Shown: in pieces, positions 1,605-51,472 of the stretch | Layout: each line of letters begins with the position of its first letter | Position numbering within the stretch: position 1 is the first letter of the stretch | From: Candidatus Buchananbacteria bacterium | GTDB lineage: Bacteria > Patescibacteriota > Patescibacteriia > Buchananbacterales > UBA6539 | Direction of reading: 5' to 3' | Length of the DNA: 55,184 nucleotides | Assembly: GCA_016930315.1 (NCBI GenBank) | Contig: JAFGGX010000024.1 | Coordinates: 1-55,184 of the forward strand | The notes under the pieces: model-generated | What the model was told of the DNA's origin: nothing | Databases searched by the model: none | The model's input: only the letters and a program-made list of their open reading frames with translations | Made by a program: the position numbers and the translations under genes

Positions 1605-3659
<2,055 letters not shown>

Positions 3660-3734
3660 ATACCAATAATCCCTGAGCCTGTCGAAAAGAGAGCAGCTGT
3701 TGGATATTTTATTTAAATCTACCGAATAATAAAC

Positions 3735-3891
3735 CCGTCGTGGGGGTTTGGGGGCAAGTGTCCGAGCCCAGCCGAACCCTTGGAATCGAAGCGGAAAGGG
3801 TGAGGCGGGTAAAAGACACAAACAATAAATGAGCGCTCGCGAGTCACGAGCCCCCAAAACTCTTTGTCCACTTTCTAGTTATAGAAAGTGG
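3735..3891 (+). ncRNA. unclassified GC-rich structured RNA element, copy 1 of 2
   Basis: Homologous to 12571-12726. Proposed helices: 3747-3755/3850-3858, 3758-3762/3815-3819 and 3771-3781/3796-3806, plus a terminal hairpin at 3868-3891. The helices are kept in copy 2 through compensatory changes. Confidence 0.55.
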
Positions 3892-3913
3892 GAGAATCTA
3901 AAATTATACACTA

Positions 3914-3957
3914 GATTCCGGATCAAGTCCGGAATGACAAGGCGGGGCAGGAATGAC
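3914..3957. repeat. GTCATTCC/GGAATGAC-family hairpin repeat
   Basis: gattccgg-atcaag-tccggaatgac, followed by a second ggaatgac. Same family as 16542, 39024, 19922, 30654 and 45831. Confidence 0.6.
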
Positions 3958-3980
3958 AAAAGTGAACACCTATACTCCTC

Positions 3981-4010
3981 TTGACGAAACCAAAACTAAT
4001 GTGGTATTAT
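3981..4010 (+). promoter_or_regulatory. sigma70-like promoter for secE-nusG
   Basis: TTGACG-N18-TATTAT with a TGG extended -10. Confidence 0.5.
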
Positions 4011-4075
4011 CGATTATATAAATCAGCCCGTCAAAGGGCTTTTTAAAAACCTTTAATTTTTAGCTTAAATTAGCT

Positions 4076-4267
4076 ATGAATATCGCAAAGAGTATAACCG
4101 ACTACTTTATCGGTGCTCGCCAAGAGCTCAAAAAAGTAGTTTGGCCAAGCAAAAAAGAAGTCATCCAACACACCTCAATGGTAATTGCCATCAGTCTGGG
4201 CGTTGCTTTATTTTTAGGTGTGATCGTCGACTACACCTTAACTTTTTTCTTAAAATTCATCATCTAA
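4076..4267 (+). CDS. secE: preprotein translocase subunit SecE
   Basis: 63 aa. Motif ELKKVVWPSKKEV followed by one C-terminal TM helix. Conserved position just before nusG. Confidence 0.85.
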   Translation: MNIAKSITDYFIGARQELKKVVWPSKKEVIQHTSMVIAISLGVALFLGVIVDYTLTFFLKFII

Positions 4268-4280
4268 TAATTTTAAAACT

Positions 4281-4826
4281 ATGCCAAAACAAACAGTCCA
4301 ACGCGGCCGGCATTGGTATGTCATTCACACTTACTCTGGTTACGAAGAAAACGTCAAAAGAAACCTCGAACAGCGTATCGAATCAATGGATATGGAAGAT
4401 AAAATCTTTGCGGTTTTAATTCCGACCGAAAAAAAGATTAAAATCAAAAACGGCAAAAGAAAAGTAATTACTGAAAAAATTTTTCCCGGTTATGTGATGG
4501 TTGATATGATGGTTGACGACAATTCATGGTATGTAGTTAGAAACACCCCAAACGTTACCGGTTTTATTGGCTCAAGCACAACCCCAACTCCAGTTTCGGA
4601 AACAGAAATCAAATCTTTACAAAAAAGAATGGGCGTTGAAGAACCAACCTTTAAAATTGATGTGGTGGTTGGTGAAGCAGTCCGAATTAACGACGGTCCG
4701 TTCAAAAATTACGAAGGTAAAATCAGCGAGGTTGATGAAGCCCGCGGTAAAGTCAAAGTATTGGTTTCGATGTTTGGCCGCGAAACTCCGGTCGAATTGG
4801 ATTCTTTGCAAGTCAAAAAGCTGTAG
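4281..4826 (+). CDS. nusG: transcription termination/antitermination factor NusG
   Basis: 181 aa. NGN domain (WYVIHTYSGYE, FPGYVMV) and a C-terminal KOW domain (GPFKNYEGKISEVD...VLVSMFGRETPVEL). Confidence 0.93.
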   Translation: MPKQTVQRGRHWYVIHTYSGYEENVKRNLEQRIESMDMEDKIFAVLIPTEKKIKIKNGKRKVITEKIFPGYVMVDMMVDDNSWYVVRNTPNVTGFIGSSTTPTPVSETEIKSLQKRMGVEEPTFKIDVVVGEAVRINDGPFKNYEGKISEVDEARGKVKVLVSMFGRETPVELDSLQVKKL

Positions 4827-4832
4827 AGTCAT

Positions 4833-4939
4833 GAATTATGAGTTATGAGTTATGGTCAAAGAAACTAACCAATCTTAAACGACCATAATTCTTGCTTCTT
4901 AATTCTAAATTCATAATTCTTGCTTCTTAATTCTAAATT
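4833..4939 (+). repeat. imperfect long hairpin plus 2 x 28-bp perfect tandem repeat in the nusG-rplK spacer
   Basis: Left arm 4833-4857 pairs with 4881-4905, allowing G-U pairs. cataattcttgcttcttaattctaaatt occurs at 4884-4911 and again at 4912-4939. Confidence 0.7.
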
Positions 4940-4951
4940 CATAATAAATTT

Positions 4952-5377
4952 ATGGCTAAAAAAATTAAAACAGTAATTAAACTTCAGATTCCCGCCGGCG
5001 CTGCTAATCCAGCTCCTCCAGTTGGCCCAGCTTTAGGCCAACACGGCTTAAATATTGCTGAATTTTGCGCTAAATTCAATGACGCCACCAAAGATCAACG
5101 TGGTGATGTCGTACCAGTAGAAATTACCGTTTTCGAAGATCGAACTTATACTTTTATTACCAAAACCTCACCAGCTGCAAACTTACTAAAAAAAGCTGCG
5201 GGAATTGAAAAAGGTTCTGGTGAATCATTGAAGAAAAAAGTTGGTAAAGTTACTAAAGCTCAGGTTAAAGAAATCGCCGAAAAAAAGATGCCCGACTTAA
5301 ACGCCAAAAATATTGAAGGCGCGATGAGAATTATCGAGGGCACCGCCAGACAAATGGGCATCGAAGTAATTGAATAA
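4952..5377 (+). CDS. rplK: 50S ribosomal protein L11
   Basis: 141 aa. [26 protein letters not shown] is the canonical L11 N-terminal signature. Confidence 0.97.
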
Positions 5378-5400
5378 AATTAATTCGTAAAAACAAACAT

Positions 5401-6357
5401 ATGACTGATCAAACCAGTCAAGCAATGACTACCGAGCAACCAAAAGCGGCTCAACACGGAGCTAAAACTTTATTTTGGTACTTTAGCTTATTTTGGACCA
5501 TGGCCATTACCGCCTTTTCAGTTGGTGCCATCTGGTTTCAATTGATCAACAAATTTTTTCCAATGGAAGTCAATTATTTGTTAATCCGTAATGCTTTTAG
5601 TCAAACTGCCATCAAAAGTGCCATTGCCGCTTTAATTGTTGGCGCACCGGTATTTTTTCTCTTCACTTGGTTAATTCGCAAATCAATCAAAAAAGAGGAG
5701 ATTAAACTCAAATCCGGCGCACGAATGTGGATTGGCTATTTGATTTTATTTATTGTAGTAGCTACCGCTGTTGGCGACATAATCACTATTGTCTGGAAGT
5801 TTTTAAATGGTGATTTTACTAGCCGCTTTTTACTAAAAAGTTTAGTAATATTGGCAATCACCGGCTGGACTTTTATTTACTTTTGGCTTTCATTAAAATC
5901 AGATGACGGATTAAAAAACTCTAAATTGCCGAGAATGTTTGTAATTACTTCGGCTGTGGCAGTGATAATCAGTTTGATTATTGGCTTTACCTTAATTGAT
6001 TCACCGGCGACCGCCAGAGCAAAGTCATACGACCTAACCAGAGAAAATGATTTAAGAAATATCAGTTCAAGTGTCGATAATTACTTCAATCAATCTGGCA
6101 AACTACCAGCCAGCCTTGAAGATTTAAAACCAATTGAGGGAGCAACCGACCCAATCACCCACCAGCCGTACCGATACAAAACTTTATCCGACACTCAATA
6201 TCAACTTTGTGCCACCTTTCAAACTGACAATCAATTAACTACTGGCGAAAAAACAACTCAGGTCTACAATCAAAACAACTTTTTACACAGTCAAGGCGAA
6301 CAATGTTTTGACCTGAAGGTTAATGACTGGAATGGTAAACAAATCATTATTAGATAA
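5401..6357 (+). CDS. multi-pass membrane protein with a C-terminal pseudopilin-like soluble domain
   Basis: 318 aa with about 5 TM segments. The C-terminal part (YDLTRENDLRNISSSVDNYFNQSGKLPASLEDL) resembles type IV pilin / GspG-type domains. Inserted between rplK and rplA. Confidence 0.55.
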   Translation: MTDQTSQAMTTEQPKAAQHGAKTLFWYFSLFWTMAITAFSVGAIWFQLINKFFPMEVNYLLIRNAFSQTAIKSAIAALIVGAPVFFLFTWLIRKSIKKEEIKLKSGARMWIGYLILFIVVATAVGDIITIVWKFLNGDFTSRFLLKSLVILAITGWTFIYFWLSLKSDDGLKNSKLPRMFVITSAVAVIISLIIGFTLIDSPATARAKSYDLTRENDLRNISSSVDNYFNQSGKLPASLEDLKPIEGATDPITHQPYRYKTLSDTQYQLCATFQTDNQLTTGEKTTQVYNQNNFLHSQGEQCFDLKVNDWNGKQIIIR

Positions 6358-6367
6358 CTAATTAATT

Positions 6368-6440
6368 TGCGGGAGAGTGATTCCTAACTCTAAATAAACC
6401 GCGATCCGCCTACGCTAAAAGCTCCGGCGGACTAAAAGGA
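6368..6440 (+). promoter_or_regulatory. structured GC-rich leader upstream of rplA (candidate L1 autoregulatory site)
   Basis: Hairpins agagt...actct and tccgcc-N15-ggcgga lie directly before the weak RBS aaagga and the rplA ATG. Confidence 0.3.
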
Positions 6441-6447
6441 AAAAATT

Positions 6448-7128
6448 ATGAAACGTTCAAAACGTTATCAGGCCCTAAGCAAAAAAATCGACAAAACAAA
6501 AAGCTATCCCTTGTCGGAAGCCATCAAATTGGTTAAAGAAACCGGCACCACTAAATTTGTCAGCTCAATTGAAGTTCATATCAAAACCGGAATCGATGCC
6601 AATAAAACCGAGCAACAAATTCGGGGCTCAGTCTCTTTACCTAACGGTACCGGTAAAACAATTAGAATTGCCGCTTTTGTGCCAGACAGCAAAGAAAAAG
6701 AAGCTAAAGAAGCTGGCGCCGATTTGGTTGGCGGTGAAGCTTTAGTCGAAAGTATTAAAAAAACCGGGAAAATTGATTTTGATGTAGCCGTTACCACCCC
6801 GGACATGATGCCAAAATTAGCCGTGATTGCTAAAATTTTGGGACCAAGAGGTTTGATGCCATCACCAAAAAACGGCACTATTACTCCAAACCTAAAAAAG
6901 ACTATTGATGAATTAAAAAAAGGTAAAGTCAACTTCAAAAACGACAGCACCGGCAACCTTCACTTGGCAATTGGTAAAACCTCATTTGATGACCAAAAAA
7001 TCACTGAAAATATCGAGAGCTTCTTGGCGGCTTTAAAAAAAGCTAAGCCATCATCTGCCAAAGGCAATTTCATCAAATCAGTTACATTAGCCTCCTCAAT
7101 GGGCCCAGGCGTGAAAGTTCAACTATAG
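6448..7128 (+). CDS. rplA: 50S ribosomal protein L1
   Basis: 226 aa. Typical L1 blocks: MKRSKRY, FVSSIEVHIKTGID, GSVSLPNGTGK, LGPRGLMPSPKNGT. Confidence 0.96.
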   Translation: MKRSKRYQALSKKIDKTKSYPLSEAIKLVKETGTTKFVSSIEVHIKTGIDANKTEQQIRGSVSLPNGTGKTIRIAAFVPDSKEKEAKEAGADLVGGEALVESIKKTGKIDFDVAVTTPDMMPKLAVIAKILGPRGLMPSPKNGTITPNLKKTIDELKKGKVNFKNDSTGNLHLAIGKTSFDDQKITENIESFLAALKKAKPSSAKGNFIKSVTLASSMGPGVKVQL

Positions 7129-7227
7129 TTCTGTAGCACTGAATCAAAAAACAGTCTTAGCTTAAGGCTGTTTTTTGATTATTTTGTTTTATTTTAGCTA
7201 AAAAATTATACTTTAAAATACAAATAC

Positions 7228-7256
7228 TTGACAAAACTACATAAATATGCTATTAT
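7228..7256 (+). promoter_or_regulatory. sigma70-like promoter of GC-rich unit 1
   Basis: TTGACA-N17-TATTAT with a TGC extended -10. Confidence 0.6.
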
Positions 7257-7290
7257 CTTAAGATTGTTCTTTAAAATTTTATTACGTCTA

Positions 7291-7348
7291 TCGATGGTTC
7301 TTTTTAGGGATGATTCATATTTGGGTTATCTCTAAAAAGAACCATCGA
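7291..7348 (+). promoter_or_regulatory. 17-bp perfect stem-loop in the long 5' leader of the 7419 gene
   Basis: tcgatggttctttttag (7291-7307) pairs perfectly with ctaaaaagaaccatcga (7332-7348). A second hairpin, gaagctt-aaa-agcttc, lies downstream. Confidence 0.55.
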
Positions 7349-7418
7349 AAAGGTGGTTTTAGAAGCTTAAAAGCTTCAATCCGGTTTCGGCTGGATAATT
7401 CCCCACAGGTGAAAAGAC

Positions 7419-8384
7419 ATGAAAAGCTACCGTTTCCTCCTCCTCATCGGAATCATCATCGCCGTGGCCACCATGGCCATGAGTCAGTCCACACCCCTCC
7501 CGCCCGAAAGCGACTTTGACTTCACCGTTGTTGTCCGTGACGGAACCAACAAAGGGACGAAAGTTCGCATCATCCGCGGGTCGGACACCGAACCGACCAT
7601 CATCACTGACAACGCCACGGGCGACATCGTCGTCATGACACCCTACTTCACACGTTGGGACTTGAATGACGTCGCCAAGCATGGCATCTTTCTGTACCCC
7701 CCGCCCCGTAAAACCCACCCAGAAAAACCCGGCACAGATCCGAAATGGGCCAATATTATCGAAGTAATCAAAAGCCTCGACAGTGCGGACGGGTTGACGT
7801 CCGCGTCAAGACTCCTACCGCTATTCGACCGGAGTAATGATCCCAAAGTCGTACTTCTCAGGCTGATCAACGCCTATGACTTCAGACTCAGCGCCGAGGT
7901 TTTCGATGTGATCCTCGCTTCTCCACTCTGTGACGGGGAGACTCTTCACGAGATTCTGAGAGTTCACGGAAAGACTGTGAACGAATACGGTGCCTGGATC
8001 GCCGGCAACAAAGCGGAGGCAGAGATCTTCGCCGACCCACGAATCAGGCTTCAGGATATCCTGAAGTATGGTCTCTGGCCTGGAAACCTGCTTCAATGGG
8101 GGGCGATATTGGAAATCTACCGTCGGGGAGATCCAGGGCTGCTCGAAGCCGCCATCAACGTAATGGCTGGCTTCCAAGGCGATGGCATCCCATACATCGC
8201 CTACGATCTACTGAGAAGCTCTCAGCTTCCCAGCCAGATCGCCAGGAAAGCCCTGACTATCAAGCCAGCGGACATTGAGCATGCCGACTACCAGGCGGCT
8301 CATATCCGAGATGCGATCAAGAATGGAATCGGCCTTGAGCAATTCGAGCCAACCCCCACGCCGGCCGTCACCACGATCGAATAA
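7419..8384 (+). CDS. GC-rich orphan secreted or membrane-anchored protein
   Basis: 321 aa. N-terminal signal/anchor MKSYRFLLLIGIIIAVATMAMS. AGGTGA lies 7 nt before the ATG. G/C-ending codons. No motif recognised. Confidence 0.7.
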   Translation: MKSYRFLLLIGIIIAVATMAMSQSTPLPPESDFDFTVVVRDGTNKGTKVRIIRGSDTEPTIITDNATGDIVVMTPYFTRWDLNDVAKHGIFLYPPPRKTHPEKPGTDPKWANIIEVIKSLDSADGLTSASRLLPLFDRSNDPKVVLLRLINAYDFRLSAEVFDVILASPLCDGETLHEILRVHGKTVNEYGAWIAGNKAEAEIFADPRIRLQDILKYGLWPGNLLQWGAILEIYRRGDPGLLEAAINVMAGFQGDGIPYIAYDLLRSSQLPSQIARKALTIKPADIEHADYQAAHIRDAIKNGIGLEQFEPTPTPAVTTIE

Positions 8385-8407
8385 CCACCACATTCCGCCC
8401 TTTCACT

Positions 8408-8466
8408 GTCCCGGCCGCGCGCAAGCAACTCAAACGTTGCACGCGACCGGGACTTCTACTTTTCTA
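8408..8466 (+). terminator. intrinsic terminator of unit 1
   Basis: gtcccgg (8408-8414) pairs with ccgggac (8447-8453), with inner pairing, followed by a T-rich tail. Confidence 0.55.
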
Positions 8467-8565
8467 GACCAAAATTGCTCCAAAAAACCATAAAATAATT
8501 GATTTGCCCCAGGGCATTTTTTTTGTTAAAATAAGGGGAGTAAAATTTACTCCTTTTATTTTTTT

Positions 8566-9105
8566 ATGGCAGAAGAACGCAAACACTATCGCCCTTCCTG
8601 GGACGATTATTTTATGGCAATTACCAAACTAATTGCCAGCCGCAGTACCTGTGATCGGCTCTATACCGGCGCAGTTTTAGTTAAAAATAACCGGATTATT
8701 TCTTCCGGTTACAATGGTTCAGCTCCAGGGCAGCCTCATTGCCTTGATTCCGGCCATTTAATGGAAGAAGGCCACTGTGTGCGCACCATCCACGGTGAGC
8801 ACAATGCTCTGCTCCAAGCCGCCGTTCAAGGTTCAACCAGCACAGTTGGCTCAACTATGTATACTAAATATAGCCCCTGCATCCACTGCACTAAGTACAT
8901 TATTGCTTGCGGCGTTAAACGAGTGGTTTTAGGTAAAATTTACCGCAATTCGCAAGCCGTGGACATGTTAAAAGCCAGTGGCGTTGAAGTTGATGTTTAT
9001 CAACCAAACCCTGAGTGGGAACAAGAAATTATCCAGATTTTTTCCGAAGATATTCCTGACCGAAAAAACGAAGGTGATGTCAAAATGGAGGTAAAAAATG
9101 GGTAA
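8566..9105 (+). CDS. comEB: dCMP deaminase (ComEB family)
   Basis: 179 aa. Zinc motifs HGEHNA and PCIHCTK. Confidence 0.9.
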   Translation: MAEERKHYRPSWDDYFMAITKLIASRSTCDRLYTGAVLVKNNRIISSGYNGSAPGQPHCLDSGHLMEEGHCVRTIHGEHNALLQAAVQGSTSTVGSTMYTKYSPCIHCTKYIIACGVKRVVLGKIYRNSQAVDMLKASGVEVDVYQPNPEWEQEIIQIFSEDIPDRKNEGDVKMEVKNG

Positions 9106-9655
9106 AAAAATTATTTTTGGCTTGGTGGGTCAAATCGCTTCGGGCAAAGACACTGTTGCTGATTATTTAGAAAAAAAATATCAAGCCAAAAGAATCAGTT
9201 TTTCGGGCATGTTGCGCGATATCCTCAATCGTCTATTTCTACCAATCAATCGCAAAAATCTAGTGGCCACTTCCGAAATAATTCGAAAACAATTTGGTCA
9301 AGACCTGATGGCTAAAGTAATTGCTGAAGAGGTAAAAAAATCTGACGCCAAAATCATTTGTCTGCCTAATATTCGGCGCAATCAAGATATTAAATATTTA
9401 TCAAAAATTCCCGGTTTTATTTTGGTCCACATTACCGCTGAGCCAAAAATTAGATACCAAAGATTAATAAACCGCCGTGAAAATATTGATGATAAAAACA
9501 AAACTTGGGCCCAATTTATCCGCGACAGCAAATTACCAACCGAAGTAACGATTAAACAAGTAGCCAAAAAAGCTAAATACACAATTGACAATAACGGCAG
9601 CTTAAACGAACTTCACGAACAAGTCGAAAAAATTCTAAAAAAACACAAAAAATAA
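9098..9655 (+). CDS. P-loop nucleotide kinase (CoaE / dNMP-kinase-like)
   Basis: 185 aa. Walker A motif GLVGQIASGKDT. Overlaps comEB by 8 nt and dut by 1 nt (TAATG), so it is translationally coupled inside the dTTP operon. Confidence 0.6.
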   Translation: MGKKIIFGLVGQIASGKDTVADYLEKKYQAKRISFSGMLRDILNRLFLPINRKNLVATSEIIRKQFGQDLMAKVIAEEVKKSDAKIICLPNIRRNQDIKYLSKIPGFILVHITAEPKIRYQRLINRRENIDDKNKTWAQFIRDSKLPTEVTIKQVAKKAKYTIDNNGSLNELHEQVEKILKKHKK

Positions 9656-10080
9656 TGCAAATCAAAATCAAAAAAACCAAAGATGATGTTAAACTCCCCT
9701 CTTACGCTCACCCGGGTGATGCCGGTCTTGATGTTTATTCTCTAGAAAATTACGAATTAAAGCCTGGCGAGAGACGAATTTTTGATTTAGGTTTTGCCTT
9801 AGAGTTGCCCGAAGATTTTGTCGCTATTGTTAAAGACAAAGGCAGTTTACCGAAACACGGTGGCTTGCATACTATGGGCGGCGTTTTTGATTCCGGCTAC
9901 CGCGGTGAATATAATATTTTGTTGATAAATTTGAGCGACCAATCATACCAAATTGAAGAAGGCGACAAAATTGCTCAACTAGTTATTATTCCCTTTGCTC
10001 GAGCTGAGCTGTTGGAAGTTGAAGAATTAACCGAAAGTAGCCGTGGTGCCGGTTCATTTGGCTCAACTGGCAAAAAATAA
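9655..10080 (+). CDS. dut: dUTP diphosphatase
   Basis: 141 aa. Motifs AGLDV, GVFDSGYRGE and RGAGSFGSTG. Confidence 0.92.
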   Translation: MQIKIKKTKDDVKLPSYAHPGDAGLDVYSLENYELKPGERRIFDLGFALELPEDFVAIVKDKGSLPKHGGLHTMGGVFDSGYRGEYNILLINLSDQSYQIEEGDKIAQLVIIPFARAELLEVEELTESSRGAGSFGSTGKK

Positions 10081-10104
10081 TCCTAATATTTTTAACCTAA
10101 GACT

Positions 10105-11463
10105 ATGCCGTTTGATTCAATCAAACATACAGAAAAATCTCTAACTAACGGCGGGATGGTTTTAATTTTAAACACCGGCGCGGTTATCAACCCAGAAGCC
10201 GAGGCAATGCTTCAAGCGTTGCATTCACGTTCAACCGGCGGCATCAAAGAACATCTGCAAACCCTCGAAAAAAAGGGAGCCGATAAATTTATGGCCAGTT
10301 TTTATGTCGGCTACGGTCATAAATCAATTGGCGATTGCGGCAGCATCACTATTTTTATCGAAGGCGTTTCAATGTTAGCGGCAAAAGCCATCCAAGACTG
10401 GCCACTTTATAGCGGTCAAGAATCATCAACTCGCTATGTTGATTTTTCTAAACAAAAATTTATTGACCCAATCAAAACTACTGAATCAAACAAGCTGCTG
10501 GAAACTTGGCGAACATTTTATTTAGACGGATTAACCCCCGTTCAAGAATATTTAAAAAGTCAATTTCCCATCCAGCCGGACCAAAAAGAATCAACCTATC
10601 TAAAAGCTATCGCCGCTCGAGCCTTTGATATTATGCGCGGCTATCTGCCAGCTGGTGCTTCGACTAATTTAGCCTGGCACACCAATTTACGCCAAGCCGC
10701 TGATAAATTAATGCTATTGCGTCATCATCCGTTAAAAGAAGTCCAGGAATTAGCCGAAACAATCGAGCAGGCTTTAATCGCCGCCCACCCAAGTTCATTT
10801 GAAGCAAAAAGGTACGACGAAACCGAAAACTATAACCAGTTTTGGATGAAAAAATATAACTATTTTGATCAATCGGAAAGTTATGGCGATCAAGTCGCTT
10901 TATTACGCAACGATATCGACACCAAATCATTAGAAAATTATCGAGAAGTATTAGAAAAACGACCACCAAAAACCGAGCTACCAAAATTTCTAGCCGAGTG
11001 TGGTACTCTACAATTTGGTTTTATGCTTGACTTCGGATCGTTTCGCGACATCCAACGTCATCGAGCTGTTAAACAAAGAATGCCGCTAGTAACAACCAAA
11101 CACGGCTTTAATCAATTTTATATCAATTCGCTACCAGAATCTCTAAGGCCAGCGGCGAAAAATTTGCTCGATTCTCAAGCAGAAGAAATAAAAAACCTTA
11201 ATACTACACCAGAGATTGCTCAATACTATACCGCCATGGGTTATAATTTACCAAATAAAGTTACTGGCGATTTGCCTTCGCTGGTTTATTTGGTTGAATT
11301 AAGAGCCACTCGCTTTGTGCACCCAACATTGAGAGACAAAGCGGCTGCCATGGCCGAAATTATTAAAAAAGAATTCGGACCGCTGGGCTTAAAATTACAT
11401 TTAGATAATGAGCCAGGGATTTTTGATATTAAACGCGGTGAACACGATATTGTAAAAAAATAA
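10105..11463 (+). CDS. thyX: flavin-dependent thymidylate synthase, long two-module form
   Basis: 452 aa. The N-terminal half has FIEGVS...SGQESSTRYV (the ThyX-motif tail without RHR). The C-terminal half has FRDIQRHRAVKQ (RHR without the Ser...RY tail). Operon context is dut and tmk. Confidence 0.65.
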   Translation: MPFDSIKHTEKSLTNGGMVLILNTGAVINPEAEAMLQALHSRSTGGIKEHLQTLEKKGADKFMASFYVGYGHKSIGDCGSITIFIEGVSMLAAKAIQDWPLYSGQESSTRYVDFSKQKFIDPIKTTESNKLLETWRTFYLDGLTPVQEYLKSQFPIQPDQKESTYLKAIAARAFDIMRGYLPAGASTNLAWHTNLRQAADKLMLLRHHPLKEVQELAETIEQALIAAHPSSFEAKRYDETENYNQFWMKKYNYFDQSESYGDQVALLRNDIDTKSLENYREVLEKRPPKTELPKFLAECGTLQFGFMLDFGSFRDIQRHRAVKQRMPLVTTKHGFNQFYINSLPESLRPAAKNLLDSQAEEIKNLNTTPEIAQYYTAMGYNLPNKVTGDLPSLVYLVELRATRFVHPTLRDKAAAMAEIIKKEFGPLGLKLHLDNEPGIFDIKRGEHDIVKK

Positions 11464-11500
11464 AAATAAAAAAGAATGGGGTCAGAACAAGTCTGCCCCA
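11464..11500 (-). terminator. intrinsic terminator of the antisense GC-rich gene
   Basis: Minus strand reads tggggcagac-ttgt-tctgacccca followed by ttcttttttattttt. Overlaps the last codons of the gene. Confidence 0.6.
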
Positions 11501-11802
11501 TCATTGTCAGCACCAACGCCGACTAACTCCCCCTCTCCGTCATCGAGACAAGGATCAACCCACGGCCGAGCTTGGCCCTCTGGTCCGCCCAATGGATCAA
11601 GGTCGTCCGTTTCGTCGTCACCACCTCCATTGTCGTCATCCGGCCAATCATCATCGAATGAATCTAAACGACCTTCCGGCGTATCCGTATCTCTGCCGTT
11701 GGCTCGAATGAGTGCTAAGATGGTGAAAACTCCCGCAAACGCTACAACCATTACGCCTACTACCATCATTGCCACACACAGAACGACAATCAACGATTTC
11801 AT
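11482..11802 (-). CDS. GC-rich orphan: N-terminal TM anchor plus poly-acidic tail
   Basis: Start set at MKSLIVVLCVAMMVVGV... because AAGGAGGG lies 9 nt upstream. The tail is rich in D/E/G (DSFDDDWPDDDNGGGDDETDD). Lies antisense between thyX and tmk. Confidence 0.65.
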   Translation of the reverse strand: MKSLIVVLCVAMMVVGVMVVAFAGVFTILALIRANGRDTDTPEGRLDSFDDDWPDDDNGGGDDETDDLDPLGGPEGQARPWVDPCLDDGEGELVGVGADNDGADLF

Positions 11803-11838
11803 CTTCAAAGGCCCTCCTTTCCGGCCGAGTACAAAAAG

Positions 11839-11865
11839 ATTATAATAATTGAATAAAATTTGCAA
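11839..11865 (-). promoter_or_regulatory. promoter of the antisense GC-rich gene
   Basis: Minus strand reads TTGCAA-N15-TATAAT. The spacer is short, so this is less certain. Confidence 0.4.
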
Positions 11866-11881
11866 GTTTAATCAACAAATT

Positions 11882-12541
11882 ATGCCTGATTTTAAAAAAC
11901 CTAAATTAATTGTGATTGATGGCATTGATGGCTCCGGCAAAGCCACTCAGACCAAGCTTTTAATTGAAAAATTACGCTTAGAGCAAATCCCGACCGAAAC
12001 GATTGATTTCCCCCAATACCAAAACAATTTTTTTGGCGGGATGGTTAGGCAATACCTGGATGGTAAATTTGGCACCCCAACTCAAATCAATCCAAAATTA
12101 GCCTCAACTCTTTATGCGGCTGATCGCTGGGAATCATCACAAAAAATTAAAGACTGGATTAACGAAAATAAACTTGTAGTAGTTGACCGCTACTCCACCA
12201 GCAATCTGATTCATCAAGGCGCTAAAATGACCGAAGACCAACTTGATGAATTCATCGGTTGGATCGACCAATTAGAATTTAAAACTTTTCAAATCCCTCA
12301 GCCCGATTTGGTTATCTTCCTGCATGTTGATCCCAAAACTTCTTATAATTTAATTACTAAACGCGGCCAGGGCCACGACGGTCACGACACCATGGAACAT
12401 TTAACTGTCGCTGAAAAAAGATGCCTATATATGGCCAAAAAGCTCGGCTGGCAAACCGTTGAATGCTGCCAAGATGGCCAGATTCTGCCCATTGAAAAAA
12501 TCCAGGAAAAAATCTGGGCAATAGTTAAAGACAACATCTAA
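11882..12541 (+). CDS. tmk: thymidylate kinase
   Basis: The ATG at 11882 (MPDFKKPKLIVIDGIDGSGKATQ) is preferred over the TTG at 11849. P-loop and a DRY-type motif (VVDRYSTSN). Confidence 0.88.
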   Translation: MPDFKKPKLIVIDGIDGSGKATQTKLLIEKLRLEQIPTETIDFPQYQNNFFGGMVRQYLDGKFGTPTQINPKLASTLYAADRWESSQKIKDWINENKLVVVDRYSTSNLIHQGAKMTEDQLDEFIGWIDQLEFKTFQIPQPDLVIFLHVDPKTSYNLITKRGQGHDGHDTMEHLTVAEKRCLYMAKKLGWQTVECCQDGQILPIEKIQEKIWAIVKDNI

Positions 12542-12570
12542 CAAAAAGATAAAATAACTTCAAAAATTAA

Positions 12571-12726
12571 CCGCGGGGGGCTTGGGGGCGAGTGTTGAGC
12601 CTAACTAAAGCCCCGAGAGTCGAAGCGATAGGGGCTTTAGTGGGTAAAAGACACAAACGATAAATGAGCGCTCGCGAATCACGAGCCCCCAAATTTCTTT
12701 GTCCACTTTCTGAATCCAGAAAGTGG
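12571..12726 (+). ncRNA. unclassified GC-rich structured RNA element, copy 2 of 2
   Basis: Homolog of 3735-3891. Proposed helices: 12582-12589/12685-12692, 12592-12596/12650-12654 (contains a U-G pair possible only on the + strand) and 12604-12614/12631-12641. A terminal hairpin at 12702-12726 is followed by cctttttt. Confidence 0.55.
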
Positions 12727-12740
12727 AATTCCTTTTTTCC

Positions 12741-12777: not shown

Positions 12778-14310
12778 ATGAATTTAACTCCAATTATCGG
12801 CTTAGAAATCCACGTCCAACTGAAAACGAAGTCAAAAATGTTTTGTGGCTGTGATAATTCCGGTGAAAACCAACCACCAAATATCACCGTTTGCCCGGTT
12901 TGCATGGGTCACCCAGGCGTTTTACCGGTAGCCAACCGCGAGGCAATCAAATGGACAGTGATGGCTGGCTTGGCTTTAAAGTGCCAAATCCCCGACTCTT
13001 TTCAATTTGAACGTAAAAACTATTTTTATCCAGACCTACCAAAGGGCTATCAAATTACTTCTTCAACCAAGCCACCGTGTATTGGCGGCTATTTAGAAAT
13101 CGACACGCCGGAAGGCAAAAGAAAACTGAGGCTCCATCACATTCACTTAGAAGAAGATGCCGCTAAAAACTTTCATTCAACCGATGGTAAAGACACTTTA
13201 GTTGACTATAATCGTTCCAGCACACCGCTAATGGAAATTGTCACCGAGCCAGATATGCGCAACCCCCAAGAAGCTAAGACCTTTTTGCAAGAGCTGCGTT
13301 TAATTATGCGTCACTTGGGCATTTCTAGTGCTGACATGGAAAAAGGTCACCTGCGCTGTGATGCCAATATTTCTTTGACCGATCAGATTAACGAAACAAA
13401 TGGCGAAATTAAATTTTACCCAAAAACCGAAATCAAAAACCTCAACTCATTCAAAGCCGTTGAGAAAGCTTTGGAATATGAAATCAAACGCCAAACTAAA
13501 ATGTGGCAAGACGGCAAAACCCCTCATCAAGCCACCCGCGGCTGGGATGAAAACAAAGGCGTCACCGAAGAACAACGCACCAAAGAAGAAGCCCACGACT
13601 ACCGCTATTTCCCCGAACCAGACATTCCACCAATTAATCTAAACAAAGATAAATCCGGCATTGATGTTGAAGCAATCAAACAAACAATGATTGAACTGCC
13701 CCAAGCCAAACGCCAACGCTTTGTCACCGAATACGATCTACCATTAGCCAACGCCAAAATTCTAACCGACGACAAGGGACTGGCCGTATTTTTTGAACAA
13801 GCTTTATCAGAATTGAGAGCCTGGCTAATTGCCCTTGACGATGTCGAAGGCACTCAAGAAGAAATCTGGCAAAAAAATAAAGGCACATTAGCCAAACTAA
13901 CCAGCAATTGGCTGATCAACAAATTAATGGCTATTGCGATTAAAGAAAACAAAGAGGTTTATTCTGGTGAAAATATTACCCCGGAAGATTTTGCTGAATT
14001 TATTACTCTAGTGCATACCCGTAAAGTTAATTCCACCATTGCTCAACAAATTTTAGAAAAAATGTTTTTAACCGGCAAAGACCCACACGAAATTTTGGAA
14101 CAAGATTTAGGTGGCAACCAGCAATCCAACGACAACCTCACTGAAATTATCCAACAGGTAATCAGCCAAAATCAAGATCAGGTGAATCAATATAAAGCCG
14201 GCAAAGAAACCGTTATCCAATTTTTAATTGGCCAAGTAATGAAATTAACCAAGGGCCAAGCCGACCCTCAAGAAGCCAAGGATTTATTAATTAATGAATT
14301 AAAAAAATAA
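12778..14310 (+). CDS. gatB: Asp/Glu-tRNA amidotransferase subunit B
   Basis: 510 aa. IGLEIHVQL, CPVCMGHPGVLP, NYFYPDLPKGYQISQ-like block, and a C-terminal YqeY-like tail. Confidence 0.95.
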   Translation: MNLTPIIGLEIHVQLKTKSKMFCGCDNSGENQPPNITVCPVCMGHPGVLPVANREAIKWTVMAGLALKCQIPDSFQFERKNYFYPDLPKGYQITSSTKPPCIGGYLEIDTPEGKRKLRLHHIHLEEDAAKNFHSTDGKDTLVDYNRSSTPLMEIVTEPDMRNPQEAKTFLQELRLIMRHLGISSADMEKGHLRCDANISLTDQINETNGEIKFYPKTEIKNLNSFKAVEKALEYEIKRQTKMWQDGKTPHQATRGWDENKGVTEEQRTKEEAHDYRYFPEPDIPPINLNKDKSGIDVEAIKQTMIELPQAKRQRFVTEYDLPLANAKILTDDKGLAVFFEQALSELRAWLIALDDVEGTQEEIWQKNKGTLAKLTSNWLINKLMAIAIKENKEVYSGENITPEDFAEFITLVHTRKVNSTIAQQILEKMFLTGKDPHEILEQDLGGNQQSNDNLTEIIQQVISQNQDQVNQYKAGKETVIQFLIGQVMKLTKGQADPQEAKDLLINELKK

Positions 14311-16530: not shown

Positions 16531-16541
16531 AATAAAACTTT

Positions 16542-16626
16542 GTCATTCCCGCGAAAGCGGGAATCTAGTGCCTAGCCTAAGCACTGGATTCCGCATATTA
16601 CGACTGCGTCGTAATTGCGGAATGAC
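16542..16626. repeat. MITE-like composite hairpin element
   Basis: Termini gtcattcc...ggaatgac enclose three hairpins (cccgcgaaagcggg, agtgc...gcact, attacgac-tgc-gtcgtaat). Sits next to a GIY-YIG gene. Confidence 0.7.
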
Positions 16627-16658
16627 GATACTTAACTTAAGTAAAATCATCGGATAGA

Positions 16659-28666: not shown

Positions 28667-29026
28667 TTAACATTTCTTTAAAAATCTAATATAACCGCTA
28701 ATTGCTTTCAATAGTTCAGTATATTTATTTGCTAAATTATGAGCAATTACTTGATCAATAAAATTCTTCTTTGCTGATCGTAAAATATTTCTTTTTGTTT
28801 CTTCTGCTTCAGCCTTGGCGATAACGCAACAACGAACTTTTTCCTTGACTGTGACTCTATTATAACTTTCAGCGATATTATTAGCCACCGAAGCTGACGA
28901 ACGGAGCAACTGATCGATTGAACGAAATCGTTCATCTTTGGGAAATTGCTTGGTAATCTGATAGACCTCAAGTTCAAAACGTTCCGCCATTTGATAAATT
29001 TTCAAATTTTCTAATCCAGTTGCCAT
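28667..29026 (-). CDS. four-helix-bundle protein (23S rRNA intervening-sequence protein family)
   Basis: 119 aa. LKIYQMAERFELEVYQITKQFPKDERF...QLLRSSASVANNIAES is typical of the family. Confidence 0.85.
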   Translation of the reverse strand: MATGLENLKIYQMAERFELEVYQITKQFPKDERFRSIDQLLRSSASVANNIAESYNRVTVKEKVRCCVIAKAEAEETKRNILRSAKKNFIDQVIAHNLANKYTELLKAISGYIRFLKKC

Positions 29027-38994: not shown

Positions 38995-39023
38995 TAGCGA
39001 TTTTAGAGTCGGCATTTCTCGCT

Positions 39024-39047
39024 GTCATTCCCGCGAAAGCGGGAATC
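39024..39047. repeat. gtcattcccgcgaaagcgggaatc hairpin repeat
   Basis: Same 24-mer as 16542-16565. Confidence 0.75.
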
Positions 39048-49210: not shown

Positions 49211-50788
49211 CTAAAAACTTTTTCGTCGTAAAAGCCGATTGTAGGTGATGGCGAAACGATGCGCTTCATCTCTGATTTTTTGGACTAATTTCAAAGCATC
49301 AGATTTACGGTCTAATTTGATTGATTCGGAATTACCAGGCCGGTAAATTTCTTCTTGTTTTTTAGCCAAAGCCGCAATCGGAATAGTTAAACCTAATGAT
49401 CGTAAGGCCGCCAGCCCAGCACTCATCTGCGGTTTGCCGCCATCAATTAAAATTAAATCTGGCAAATCAGCTTTATCAATTTTCAATCGGTAATACCGCC
49501 GATAAATAATTTCGCGCATGGCATCAAAATCAGATTGGCCCGTCTGCCATTTAATTTTAAACCGCCGATAATTATTTTTGTCTGGCAAACCATCTTTAAA
49601 GCAAACCATCGAACCAACAATAAAACTGTCACCCAAATTAGAAACATCAAAACATTCAATCACCGTCGGCAGCTTTGGTAAACTCAAACTCTCCTGCAAT
49701 TCAAACAAAGCACTGTCGCCTCTTTTCAAACTAACTAAAATATTTTTTTTGACTAATTCTAAAAGCTGCAAATTGGTCCCGCGCTTAGCCATTTTAATCC
49801 GGACTTTTCTGCCAGCCAAGCGAGTTAAATAACTTTCAATTGTAGTTTTTTCCGGCAACTCAACAGGCGCCACCACTTCTTGCGGTAATTCATGACTGTA
49901 ATAATATTGTTTAACAAAACCGGCTAATAATTCCGGCAAATCTTGTTTGATTGATATGGCAAAAGAAAACTGTTTCCGACCAGAAACCACGCCTTTGTTG
50001 ATATTAAACAACTGAACAATAAATTTATTCGCGGTGATTATGCCATTAATTACATCTTGATCGTAATTTTTTTTGAGGTGAATCTTTTGTTCCGATTGTA
50101 AATTAACCAACGCTTTAATTTGATCGCGTCGTAATTTTGCTAGTTCATATTTTTCTTGACTAGAAAACTGGTCCATTTCTTTTTTTAAATCAACAATTAA
50201 CTTCTCGACCTTTCCTTGCAATAGCATCCGCGCCCGATCTAAGTCTTTTTTATATTCTTCCAAACTAATAATCCGCGTCCAGGGAGGAACCGAACACTTA
50301 ATTTTATATTTACCGGCAACGGCCTGAGGTTTAGTTTTGCCCACTCGCAACTTAAACAAAGTATTAGCCAGTCTGATTAAATTTCTTCTAGCTGTACCCC
50401 AAACATAAGGGCCATAAACTTCGTCTTTGTTTTTAAAAATTCGTACCGTTTCTAATCGCGGAAATAGTTCATTAGTAACTTTAATGTAAGCGTAACGCAC
50501 TCCACCTTTTAGCTCCAGATTATATTGTGGCTGCTGATCCTTAATTAGTCGCGCTTCTAAAAGTAAAGCTTCAACTTCCGAATCAGTGACAATGTAATCT
50601 AGGTTTTTAATTTTACTAACCAGCTGCTTGGTCTTGGGATCAACAATATTTTTATTGAAATATGAGCTGACTCGTTTTTTTAAATCTTTTGCTTTGCCAA
50701 TATAAATAATCTCATCGGCTCTATTTTTGAATAAATAGCAACCAGGGTGATTGGGTAAATTTCTTATTTTTTCTTTGACTATTGACAT
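49211..50788 (-). CDS. uvrC: excinuclease ABC subunit C
   Basis: Start set at the ATG at 50788 (MSIVKEKIRNLP...) rather than the TTG at 50797. GIY-YIG N-terminus (GCYLFKN...IIYIGKAKDLKKR) and a C-terminal endonuclease domain. Confidence 0.93.
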   Translation of the reverse strand: MSIVKEKIRNLPNHPGCYLFKNRADEIIYIGKAKDLKKRVSSYFNKNIVDPKTKQLVSKIKNLDYIVTDSEVEALLLEARLIKDQQPQYNLELKGGVRYAYIKVTNELFPRLETVRIFKNKDEVYGPYVWGTARRNLIRLANTLFKLRVGKTKPQAVAGKYKIKCSVPPWTRIISLEEYKKDLDRARMLLQGKVEKLIVDLKKEMDQFSSQEKYELAKLRRDQIKALVNLQSEQKIHLKKNYDQDVINGIITANKFIVQLFNINKGVVSGRKQFSFAISIKQDLPELLAGFVKQYYYSHELPQEVVAPVELPEKTTIESYLTRLAGRKVRIKMAKRGTNLQLLELVKKNILVSLKRGDSALFELQESLSLPKLPTVIECFDVSNLGDSFIVGSMVCFKDGLPDKNNYRRFKIKWQTGQSDFDAMREIIYRRYYRLKIDKADLPDLILIDGGKPQMSAGLAALRSLGLTIPIAALAKKQEEIYRPGNSESIKLDRKSDALKLVQKIRDEAHRFAITYNRLLRRKSF

Positions 50789-50815
50789 TTTAAACAAAAT
50801 ATAATATAAAATATA
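50778..50815 (+). repeat. 38-bp perfect direct repeat, copy 1 (uvrC start codon plus + strand promoter)
   Basis: actattgacattttaaacaaaatataatataaaatata. The + strand reads TTGACA (50782-50787)-N17-TATAAA. Confidence 0.9.
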
Positions 50816-50836
50816 TAATATTCCACTTCCACAAGG

Positions 50837-51173: not shown

Positions 51174-51211
51174 ACTATTGACATTTTAAACAAAATATAA
51201 TATAAAATATA
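51174..51211 (+). repeat. 38-bp perfect direct repeat, copy 2 (promoter of the next cassette)
   Basis: Identical to 50778-50815. TTGACA at 51178-51183. Confidence 0.9.
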
Positions 51212-51238
51212 CAACCAATCCACTGGAGGTACATACGC

Positions 51239-51472
51239 ATGGGAACTAAAGACGGTCTTCCATCCTATGGCGACGATAAAAACGAAGGGCTATTACGCAT
51301 GGGAACTAAAGAGTCTTATCCATCTTGTAAACCCAAGCCGTCGAAAGAAAGTCCCGTTGAAAGGCGCCCATACCCCGAAGATAAGAGCAATGGAATGTGC
51401 TCAGGATGCGGAGCATTTCTCGATAATGAAGGTTTCTGTCACTTCTGTAACCCAAATGGCTGGCTTCGCTAA
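51239..51472 (+). CDS. GC-rich orphan mini-protein with a C-terminal zinc-ribbon-like CxxC...CxxC
   Basis: 77 aa. GGAGG lies 9 nt upstream. CSGCGAFLDNEGFCHFC. The N-terminus has an internal 60-nt duplication that includes the start codon. Confidence 0.55.
   Translation: MGTKDGLPSYGDDKNEGLLRMGTKESYPSCKPKPSKESPVERRPYPEDKSNGMCSGCGAFLDNEGFCHFCNPNGWLR

Follow-up and report, generated by a model that had tools for sequence, protein, structure and literature searches.

What is the structured sequence that stands twice in a 55,184-nucleotide contig (JAFGGX010000024.1 of assembly GCA_016930315.1; hereafter the window) from a Candidatus Buchananbacteria bacterium, and does it act as RNA or as mobile DNA? 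There are two copies of this element, and both are co-oriented with their flanking genes and located directly after the stop codon of the last gene of a + strand operon. An initial annotation, made from the letters alone, had described them as paralogous structured elements with compensatory base changes that belong to no family it could recognise. The reading we favour, with a probability of about one half, is that they belong to a structured non-coding element, specific to this lineage, which acts as a + strand RNA and probably forms the 3′ tail of the transcript from the operon upstream.

Copy 1 is found at positions 3733-3893 of the + strand, between the stop codon of gyrB (3659) and the promoter of secE (3981-4010). 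Copy 2 is found at positions 12568-12728 of the same strand, between the stop codon of tmk (12541) and the promoter and start of gatB (12778). Pfam matches for the neighbouring genes (gyrB, 1614-3659; secE, 4076-4267; tmk, 11849-12541; gatB, 12778-14310) bear out the two intergenic gaps named in the initial annotation, and every string and coordinate quoted there was recovered from the sequence. The left end of the homology lies near 3724/12562, some 10 nucleotides to the left of the start given previously. The copies align over approximately 161 nucleotides with a mean column identity of 87%, which rises to 89% across the 3′ 85 nucleotides, and the four runs reported as identical are all present in both: gggtaaaagacacaaac at 3807/12642, ataaatgagcgctcgcga at 3825/12660, tcacgagcccccaaa at 3844/12679 and tctttgtccactttct at 3861/12696.

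A covariance model built from both copies, as the initial annotation had proposed (model R1), scores copy 1 at 191.1 bits and copy 2 at 192.5 bits. With filters turned off, nothing else in the window exceeds 23 bits, and the matches of 17-23 bits correspond to the opposite strand of the palindromic terminal hairpin; the next + strand match reaches 13 bits. Likewise, a core 17-mer with up to three mismatches occurs only at these two sites, compared with 0.29 sites expected. The same sequence is present in independent Logan contigs of a public sediment metagenome run (run X1), and therefore the element is not an artefact of this assembly.

Because MAFFT shifts the variable helix by one column, the two copies were aligned by hand on their structure. 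In the resulting model a closing helix, formed by P0 and P1, encloses an arm composed of P2 and P3 and a one-sided internal loop (2 nucleotides on the 5′ side versus 30 on the 3′ side). In copy 1, the 5′ strands of P0 (GGGG, 3742-3745) and P1 (TTTGGGGGC, 3747-3755) find their partners in the stretch 3850-3863, which holds the 3′ strand of P1 (GCCCCCAAA) followed by that of P0 (CTCT); the equivalent stretch in copy 2 is 12685-12698. The outer helix that had been described as kept, P1, is indeed TTGGGGGC/GCCCCCAA in both copies (as RNA, UUGGGGGC with GCCCCCAA). In P0, GGGG pairs with CUCU in copy 1 and with UUCU in copy 2, giving two and three G.U pairs, respectively, each of which would turn into an A.C mismatch if the - strand were read. 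The 5′ strand of P2 is GTGTC in copy 1 (3758-3762) and GTGTT in copy 2 (12592-12596), and it pairs with GACAC (3815-3819 in copy 1) in both cases.

The P3 arm spans positions 3766-3810 in copy 1 and 12599-12645 in copy 2. Its base, P3a, consists of GCCC/GGGT in the former and GCCT/GGGT in the latter (GCCC or GCCU with GGGU in the RNA), and is followed by a conserved bulged A (3770 and 12603). Above this lies the 11-base-pair variable helix P3b, which is GCCGAACCCTT/AAGGGTGAGGC in copy 1 (3771-3781/3796-3806), where it carries a tandem G.A/A.G mismatch, and ACTAAAGCCCC/GGGGCTTTAGT in copy 2 (12604-12614/12631-12641), where it is perfect. The cap is a loop of 14-16 nucleotides (3782-3795 and 12615-12630) with an invariant TCGAAGCG at 3786-3793 and 12620-12627 (UCGAAGCG in RNA letters). 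The hand alignment thus agrees with the initial annotation that this helix has been re-paired between the copies around a constant loop core.

A conserved 3′ core of about 39 nucleotides (3811-3849 in copy 1; 12646-12684 in copy 2) differs between the copies at just two positions. It includes the AAAA bulge, the 3′ strand GACAC of P2, the junction AAACAATAAATGA and the palindrome-rich GCGCTCGCGAGTCACGA, which might form an additional hairpin (P4). The complete 30-nucleotide junction is AAACRAUAAAUGA followed by GCGCUCGCGARUCACGA. A pseudoknot between the loop and this junction (UCGAAGCG with CGCU..CGA) was considered and rejected, in that shuffled loops paired as well in 127 and 115 of 500 trials.

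After the junction and the closing strands come UUGU and then a terminal hairpin, located at 3868-3891 in copy 1 (CCACTTTCTA GTTA TAGAAAGTGG) and at 12702-12727 in copy 2, where together with ATTCCTTTTT it extends to 12737. The initial annotation had given this hairpin as CCACTTTCT and AGAAAGTGG around a six-nucleotide loop. The hairpin is present, but the outer bases of that loop pair with each other (A-T in copy 1 and G-C in copy 2), and the structure is therefore a 10-base-pair stem with a loop of 4 nucleotides. The layout of an intrinsic terminator, a GC-containing stem with a U-run directly after it, is found in copy 2 and not in copy 1. The T-run previously pointed out in copy 2 is scored together with its hairpin as terminator-like by the scanner, but it starts 6 nucleotides after the stem.

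Evidence that the fold has been maintained comes from the positions at which the two copies differ. With the exception of the tandem mismatch in P3b of copy 1, the + strand pairs of P0, P1, P2, P3 and the terminal hairpin are standard in both copies. Six changes affect both sides of a pair and preserve pairing (five in P3b and one at the closing pair of the terminal hairpin), and five of these six are exchanges between GC and AU, the type that is able to pass through a G.U intermediate. All three of the one-sided changes within helices are C to U and create a G.U pair, and none of the changes breaks a pair. Such consistent compensation is unusual for a comparison of just two sequences. Substitutions therefore respect the helices proposed earlier, and they do so on the + strand; when the same helices are read on the - strand, there are four A.C mismatches in copy 1 and seven in copy 2. 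It had been argued from the U-G pair in P2 that the + strand must be the RNA. The pair is + strand-specific as claimed, but it does not single out RNA, because a G.T pair would fit + strand single-stranded DNA equally well.

The same strand asymmetry is evident in the predicted folding energies. The consensus fold reaches -64.5 kcal/mol on the + strand, with a structure conservation index of 0.93, versus -54.8 kcal/mol on the - strand. Individually, copy 1 folds at -64.6 kcal/mol (z = -4.06) and copy 2 at -73.6 kcal/mol (z = -6.19) as + strand RNA, compared with -58.6 and -61.7 kcal/mol on the - strand. A makes up 42% and U 15% of the unpaired positions, versus 34% and 33% in neighbouring + strand spacers, and the GC content of the element is 52-54% where the neighbouring spacers have 33% and the window has 41%. 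Structured RNAs in AT-rich genomes usually form GC-rich islands with an A-rich unpaired fraction, and these energy, composition and GC figures are what a folded + strand molecule usually shows.

The differences between the copies are distributed very unevenly. They affect 13 of the 22 columns of P3b and only 23 of the 133 columns elsewhere, and most of the latter lie in the flanks of the P3 loop, in the terminal loop and in the leader; the substitutions are mainly transitions. Given this unevenness, the identical blocks look selected and not merely young. The pattern implies either old copies with sequence-specific constraint over most of the element or rapid, local change of P3b and the loops. 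We favour the first of these possibilities, since the changes resemble ordinary point substitutions, including wobble intermediates.

At neither copy does a terminator intervene between the upstream stop codon and the element. Promoter-like sites are located upstream of both (TGGATA-18-AATAAT ending at 3730 for copy 1; AAGACA-16-TAAAAT ending at 12555 for copy 2), each matching at 9 of 12 positions, but their locations are not homologous between the copies, and shuffled sequence contains such sites at least as often. Neither copy therefore appears to have a convincing promoter of its own, which, together with the position behind the last gene of an operon, makes it most likely that the upstream mRNA runs on into the element, which would be its 3′ tail. 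The earlier proposal of an RNA gene or element family is thus supported in part, namely for a non-coding family with a + strand fold; an independent RNA gene is not supported.

Promoters for the downstream genes lie beyond the element in both cases. That of secE is TTGACG-18-TATTAT at 3981-4010. The promoter previously assigned to gatB after copy 2 (TTGATT-17-TAATAT) matches at only 8 of 12 positions, below the scanner threshold, but a similar TTGATT box precedes gatB in a relative that lacks the element (locus L006), where it is followed by a -10-like TAATCT (17 nucleotides) or GATAAT (15 nucleotides), as read by eye. Since the secE and gatB promoters are downstream of the element and their counterparts are kept in L006, the element is not a leader of these genes, and a riboswitch or other 5′ leader was rejected on this ground. 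Downstream of the strong secE promoter and ahead of the secE start codon (3981-4075) there is also a terminator-like hairpin with a U-run (AGCCCGTCAAAGGGCTTTTT, 4025-4045), which follows the TTGACG-18-TATTAT site within about 15 nucleotides. The same promoter-hairpin layout of the secE-nusG operon is found in L006 (3488-3607), and it looks like a conserved attenuator.

No known RNA family accounts for the element. When the whole window was searched with the 4227 models of Rfam 15 at the gathering threshold, there were no matches, and permissive filters with E <= 10 yielded only noise for each copy (E = 1.4-6, 14-16 bits), in keeping with the earlier failure to recognise a family. Similarly, ARAGORN reports no tRNA or tmRNA genes in the window. 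In agreement with the initial annotation, the element is also not protein-coding. No reading frame is conserved to a common stop in both copies, and translations of the core in three frames (two on the - strand and the + strand open reading frame) yielded no real relatives among 5.8 billion clustered and 1.84 billion representative proteins. Two weak matches, P0121 and P0122, are tandem-repeat proteins with no relation to it, and P0121 also shows no resemblance to the element at the DNA level. Identification as part of a known mobile element, which would have overturned the initial annotation, found no match in Rfam or in BLAST searches of phages and plasmids.

Several specific identities were rejected or fit poorly on grounds of architecture or gene content. 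The unit ends carry no terminal inverted repeats, as AACCCG... on the left and ...AAAGTGGGA on the right are not complementary and the inverted repeats present are internal (P1, P3 and the terminal hairpin). There is also no target-site duplication; the AATCTA that flanks copy 1 is off the homology ends, and copy 2 is without a flanking direct repeat. Thus, the element lacks the hallmarks of a miniature inverted-repeat transposable element (MITE). No genes for a transposase, RAYT, reverse transcriptase, Cas protein or TnpB are present in the window, and the architecture is not that of a REP doublet, with no Y1 transposase in the 55 kb. A TnpB/IscB guide (omega) RNA was rejected because the neighbours are gyrB/secE and tmk/gatB, there is no Rfam match and TnpB is missing from the window, although a TnpB encoded elsewhere in the genome might act in trans; a retron msr-msd was rejected for want of a reverse transcriptase there. 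Readings as a diversity-generating retroelement, CRISPR, integron attC, retron or TnpB component all fail for the lack of a partner gene in the window and for the wrong topology.

Relatives identified by GatB carry the annotation Candidatus Buchananbacteria or Patescibacteria, and the closest is just 73-74% identical, indicating that this lineage is barely sampled. In five relatives (GatB 68-74%) the order gyrB-secE-nusG-rplK-rplA ... tmk-gatB is kept. No trace of the element was seen by eye in L006 (both spacers, which are short), in L010 and L038 (tmk|gatB spacer only) or in L012, and R1 detects nothing in the fetched loci, which include these four and L013. The tmk|gatB spacer in three of these relatives instead holds a small, very basic open reading frame of approximately 31-42 codons with its own promoter and Shine-Dalgarno sequence (L010, 9718-9872; L012, 9776-9891; L038, 1772-1888). 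With regard to its absence in relatives, the element seems to behave as a lineage-specific repeat family and not as a conserved RNA gene.

Broader searches gave a similar result. An 18-mer of the element has only chance matches among 185,579 species genomes (Nocardia, a Prevotellaceae metagenome-assembled genome and Filobacillus), which score at most 16 bits with R1. The Filobacillus milosensis loci contain long tandem arrays of a 20-nucleotide unit, GGAATAAATGAGCGCTCACG, and its variants (L002, 1200-1620; L003, 1582-1679; L005, 5560-6040), and the 18-mer that these arrays have in common with the junction of the element is most likely due to chance. There were no matches to two different patterns in JGI metagenomes. 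Of four patterns searched in IMG/VR, three had none and one had 11, none of which reached E <= 1 with R1. Phages and plasmids likewise gave no match when searched by BLAST in distant mode, and literature searches by topic and by sequence string found nothing relevant.

In run X1, of which 56% of the contigs were read, the path through copy 1 consists of four unitigs with depths of 9.25, 14.6, 28.3 and 7.66, and therefore the 49-mer at 3775-3823 is common to about three genome equivalents. A separate contig of 1841 nucleotides (depth 9.4) carries a version of the element with a divergent 5′ half that is 82% identical. Taken together, the unitig depths and the divergent contig suggest that the family has at least 4-5 members in that community.

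How might such an element function? We infer that it is transcribed as the 3′ tail of the gyrB or tmk operon mRNA, ahead of the promoter of the next operon. In the transcript, the closing helix P0/P1 would enclose the long, bent P2-P3 arm, with its conserved bulged A, AAAA bulge and loop core UCGAAGCG, along with the conserved, purine-rich junction of about 30 nucleotides. The terminal 10-base-pair hairpin may end the transcript, as the U-run of copy 2 would permit, or it may block 3′ exonucleases. A stable RNA of about 150 nucleotides would then either remain on the mRNA or be cut from it. P3b seems constrained only to pair while the sequence of the remainder seems constrained, suggestive of a specific partner, either a protein or a nucleic acid. 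Perhaps the element even represents a previously undescribed functional RNA class confined to this barely sampled, Buchananbacteria-related lineage of Patescibacteria, such as a ribozyme, a conformational switch or a ribonucleoprotein scaffold that has spread to several operon ends, but we regard this as unlikely. Such a class would possess a three-way-junction core of about 125 nucleotides in which the bases of the junction and loop are invariant, one helix covaries freely and the P2 strand has a choice of two mutually exclusive partners, a description to which we give equally limited credence.

A number of observations weigh against a functional + strand RNA. There are only two full copies, too few for a statistical test of covariation, and most helices (P1, P2 and the terminal stem) are mostly invariant between them. 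Wobble pairs are tolerated as G.T in single-stranded DNA too. The terminal hairpin of copy 1 is not followed by a U-run. Three metatranscriptomes of the same study contain no contig from this genome, matching neither the element nor its flanks; run X1, the only run that holds the genome, is a DNA run. The absence of the element from the orthologous spacers of five relatives, and from all collections scanned, would be unusual for a strongly selected RNA unless its clade is unsampled.

Some pairings within the junction also fit poorly with the + strand model. The palindrome-rich GAGCGCUCGCGAG is compatible with several pairings, and the candidate hairpin P4 (GCUCGCG-AGU-CACGAGC) has a C.A mismatch on the + strand versus a U.G pair on the - strand, with energies of -5.7 and -10.5 kcal/mol, respectively. 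Moreover, the 5′ strand of P2 has a competing partner, (G/A)UCAC, at 3843-3847 (GTCAC in copy 1). The C to U change in P2 (3762/12596) is complementary to a G to A change at 3843/12678, which is one of just two substitutions in the 3′ core. This match suggests an alternative helix, GUGU(C/U)-(G/A)UCAC, that might compete with P2; the two conformers differ by about 2 kcal/mol in copy 1 and about 6 kcal/mol in copy 2. The competing pairings could be a switch or a coincidence.

The alternative that has to be taken most seriously, although we hold it to be possible and not probable, is that the element is a non-autonomous mobile DNA repeat similar to a REPIN, a MITE or an IS200/605-derived PATE. 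The fold would then serve as + strand single-stranded DNA for a transposase encoded elsewhere, and any RNA would be a by-product. REPINs and the ends of IS200/605 elements are also known to have compensated hairpins and G.T pairs that are specific to one strand. Two spacers are filled here and empty in five relatives with the same gene order, the homology ends sharply between unrelated flanks, the unitig depths and divergent contig of run X1 suggest at least 4-5 copies, and other small palindromic repeats adjoin copy 1. Several copies with filled and empty sites among relatives are thus found, as would be expected of a mobile repeat, the relatives being distant (GatB 68-74%). However, neither copy has inverted-repeat ends or a target-site duplication, and the window holds no gene for a transposase, RAYT, TnpB or reverse transcriptase. 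In addition, the divergence is focused on one helix and the loops and leaves about 100 nucleotides nearly identical, where neutral decay would be uniform, and mobility leaves the A-rich composition of the unpaired positions unexplained. The two explanations are compatible in that a mobile repeat can be transcribed. We class the element as a bacterial structured intergenic repeat or non-coding RNA motif.

Other explanations are far less probable. One possibility is that the conserved 3′ 85 nucleotides encode a small RNA on the - strand, with a 5′ hairpin CCACUUUCU...AGAAAGUGG, a single-stranded ACAAAGAGUUUUGGGG, the hairpin GCUCGUG-ACU-CGCGAGC and a U-rich tail. This region is the best conserved part of the element, the GCUCGUG-ACU-CGCGAGC hairpin is more stable on the - strand, and the scanner finds a terminator-like site of 7 pairs followed by GCTCATTTAT on that strand in both copies. 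A TATAAT box, read by eye, is located 11 nucleotides upstream of the hairpin on the - strand of copy 1, but copy 2 lacks a matching -10 box and both copies lack a -35 box; the U-tail is interrupted, and the compensated 5′ half (P0-P3) with its G.U pairs that form only on the + strand would have no explanation. A cis-acting leader (riboswitch or attenuator) for secE-nusG-rplKA and gatB is comparably improbable. Both copies do lie upstream of + strand genes, and the fold resembles a three-way junction in which the junction bases are conserved and one strand has two pairings that compete. Against this stand the position of the downstream promoters and their counterparts in L006, the unrelated functions of the two downstream operons and the absence of an Rfam match. 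We give almost no weight to a small protein gene or to a chance or assembly artefact. A + strand ATG is present at 3829/12664 and the first 10 codons are identical in both copies, but these frames end differently (51 versus 29 amino acids) and lack a ribosome-binding site, and the only hits among the 1.84 billion representative proteins are the two tandem-repeat proteins mentioned above. An artefact is contradicted by the independent X1 contigs.

Patescibacteria, members of the candidate phyla radiation, have tiny genomes and, to our knowledge, very little of their non-coding RNA biology has been described. Multi-copy and strongly folded, with a conserved core and one helix that drifts while compensating, the element may well represent a new RNA family or a new kind of mobile structured repeat in this group. 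In the case of a functional RNA, the invariant junction and loop would indicate where binding or catalysis takes place. A mobile repeat, in turn, would illustrate how small symbiont genomes gain terminator-like modules at operon ends.

The operon upstream of copy 2 is a nucleotide-metabolism operon that ends in tmk, and the remainder of the window is given over to housekeeping genes. These include secE-nusG-rplK-rplA, genes for dCMP deaminase, dUTPase and ThyX, miaA, thrS, dnaE, pheST, a UvrD/PD-(D/E)XK helicase-nuclease gene, an ATP synthase operon, metG, uvrC and uvrA. The ThyX (flavin-dependent thymidylate synthase; 10105-11463) has 452 amino acids, and the relatives have ThyA and dihydrofolate reductase (DHFR) at this place. 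A gene for a 23S_rRNA_IVP protein (a four-helix bundle, bAvd-like) lies on the - strand between pheS and pheT (28667-29026), and in the relatives such a gene is found between thyA and the DHFR gene. Between nusG and rplK there is a perfect tandem duplication of 28 nucleotides (4884-4939). A 41-nucleotide promoter-like sequence (TTGACA ... TATAAT) occurs twice, 396 nucleotides apart, between uvrC and uvrA (50778-50818 and 51174-51214), beside a 31-nucleotide direct repeat with a spacing of 60 nucleotides (51234-51324).

The window also contains small palindromic REP-like units that consist of an ATTCC-stem-loop-GGAAT with a GACA/TGTC flank (16541-16565 and 39023-39047; also 16586-16637 and 3915-3957). 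One such unit, TGTCATTCCCGCGAAAGCGGGAATC, has two identical occurrences, and variants of it come directly after copy 1. In run X1 the contig depths over the stretch 3907-3942 add up to 4000-8400, compared with 8-9 for this genome, and the unit must therefore be common to many organisms of that sediment. The exact 25-mer is present in 24 IMG/VR contigs. The core fits the Neisseria dRS3 pattern, ATTCCC-N8-GGGAAT. A 20-mer of the unit appears in a paper on N. gonorrhoeae (PMC7593972).

Among the systems already described, 6S RNA is of similar size, its 5′ and 3′ ends likewise form a closing helix, and it has paralogues in some bacteria. However, 6S RNA has a two-sided central bubble where the element has a one-sided loop (2 versus 30 nucleotides), and there is no Rfam 6S match even at E <= 10, and hence this identity was rejected. 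The ends of IS200/IS605 elements, PATEs and TnpB omega RNAs are also about 150 nucleotides long, strongly folded and strand-specific, without terminal inverted repeats but with a hairpin a few bases from the right end and a variable downstream flank. The element differs from them in having no TnpA or TnpB gene in the window, no local hairpin at the left end, no shared flanking tetranucleotide and no match in Rfam, a library that we take to include the IS605-orfB and HEARO models.

More similar are the REP/BIME, RAYT-mobilised REPIN, ERIC, Correia and RUP repeats, which are multi-copy and intergenic and usually follow the final gene of an operon, always pointing the same way. They too form stable hairpins with compensated stems and are absent from the same site in relatives, and they are co-transcribed. 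However, REPs are simple palindromes of 20-40 nucleotides and ERIC and Correia elements have terminal inverted repeats, whereas the element folds asymmetrically into several helices, keeps long unpaired stretches conserved and has neither a terminal inverted repeat nor a target duplication, with no RAYT within 55 kb. Small RNAs derived from 3′ untranslated regions, such as CpxQ and SroC of enterobacteria, also lie directly after a stop codon, share the terminal hairpin of their operon and need no promoter of their own. These are short, single-copy, Hfq-dependent RNAs that act by seed pairing and are conserved with their host gene, whereas the element is multi-copy, highly structured and without a fixed host gene; the likeness is one of resemblance only. 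While the element has the defining features of none of these systems, it is closest to the transcribed structured repeats at operon ends and to the small RNAs derived from 3′ untranslated regions.

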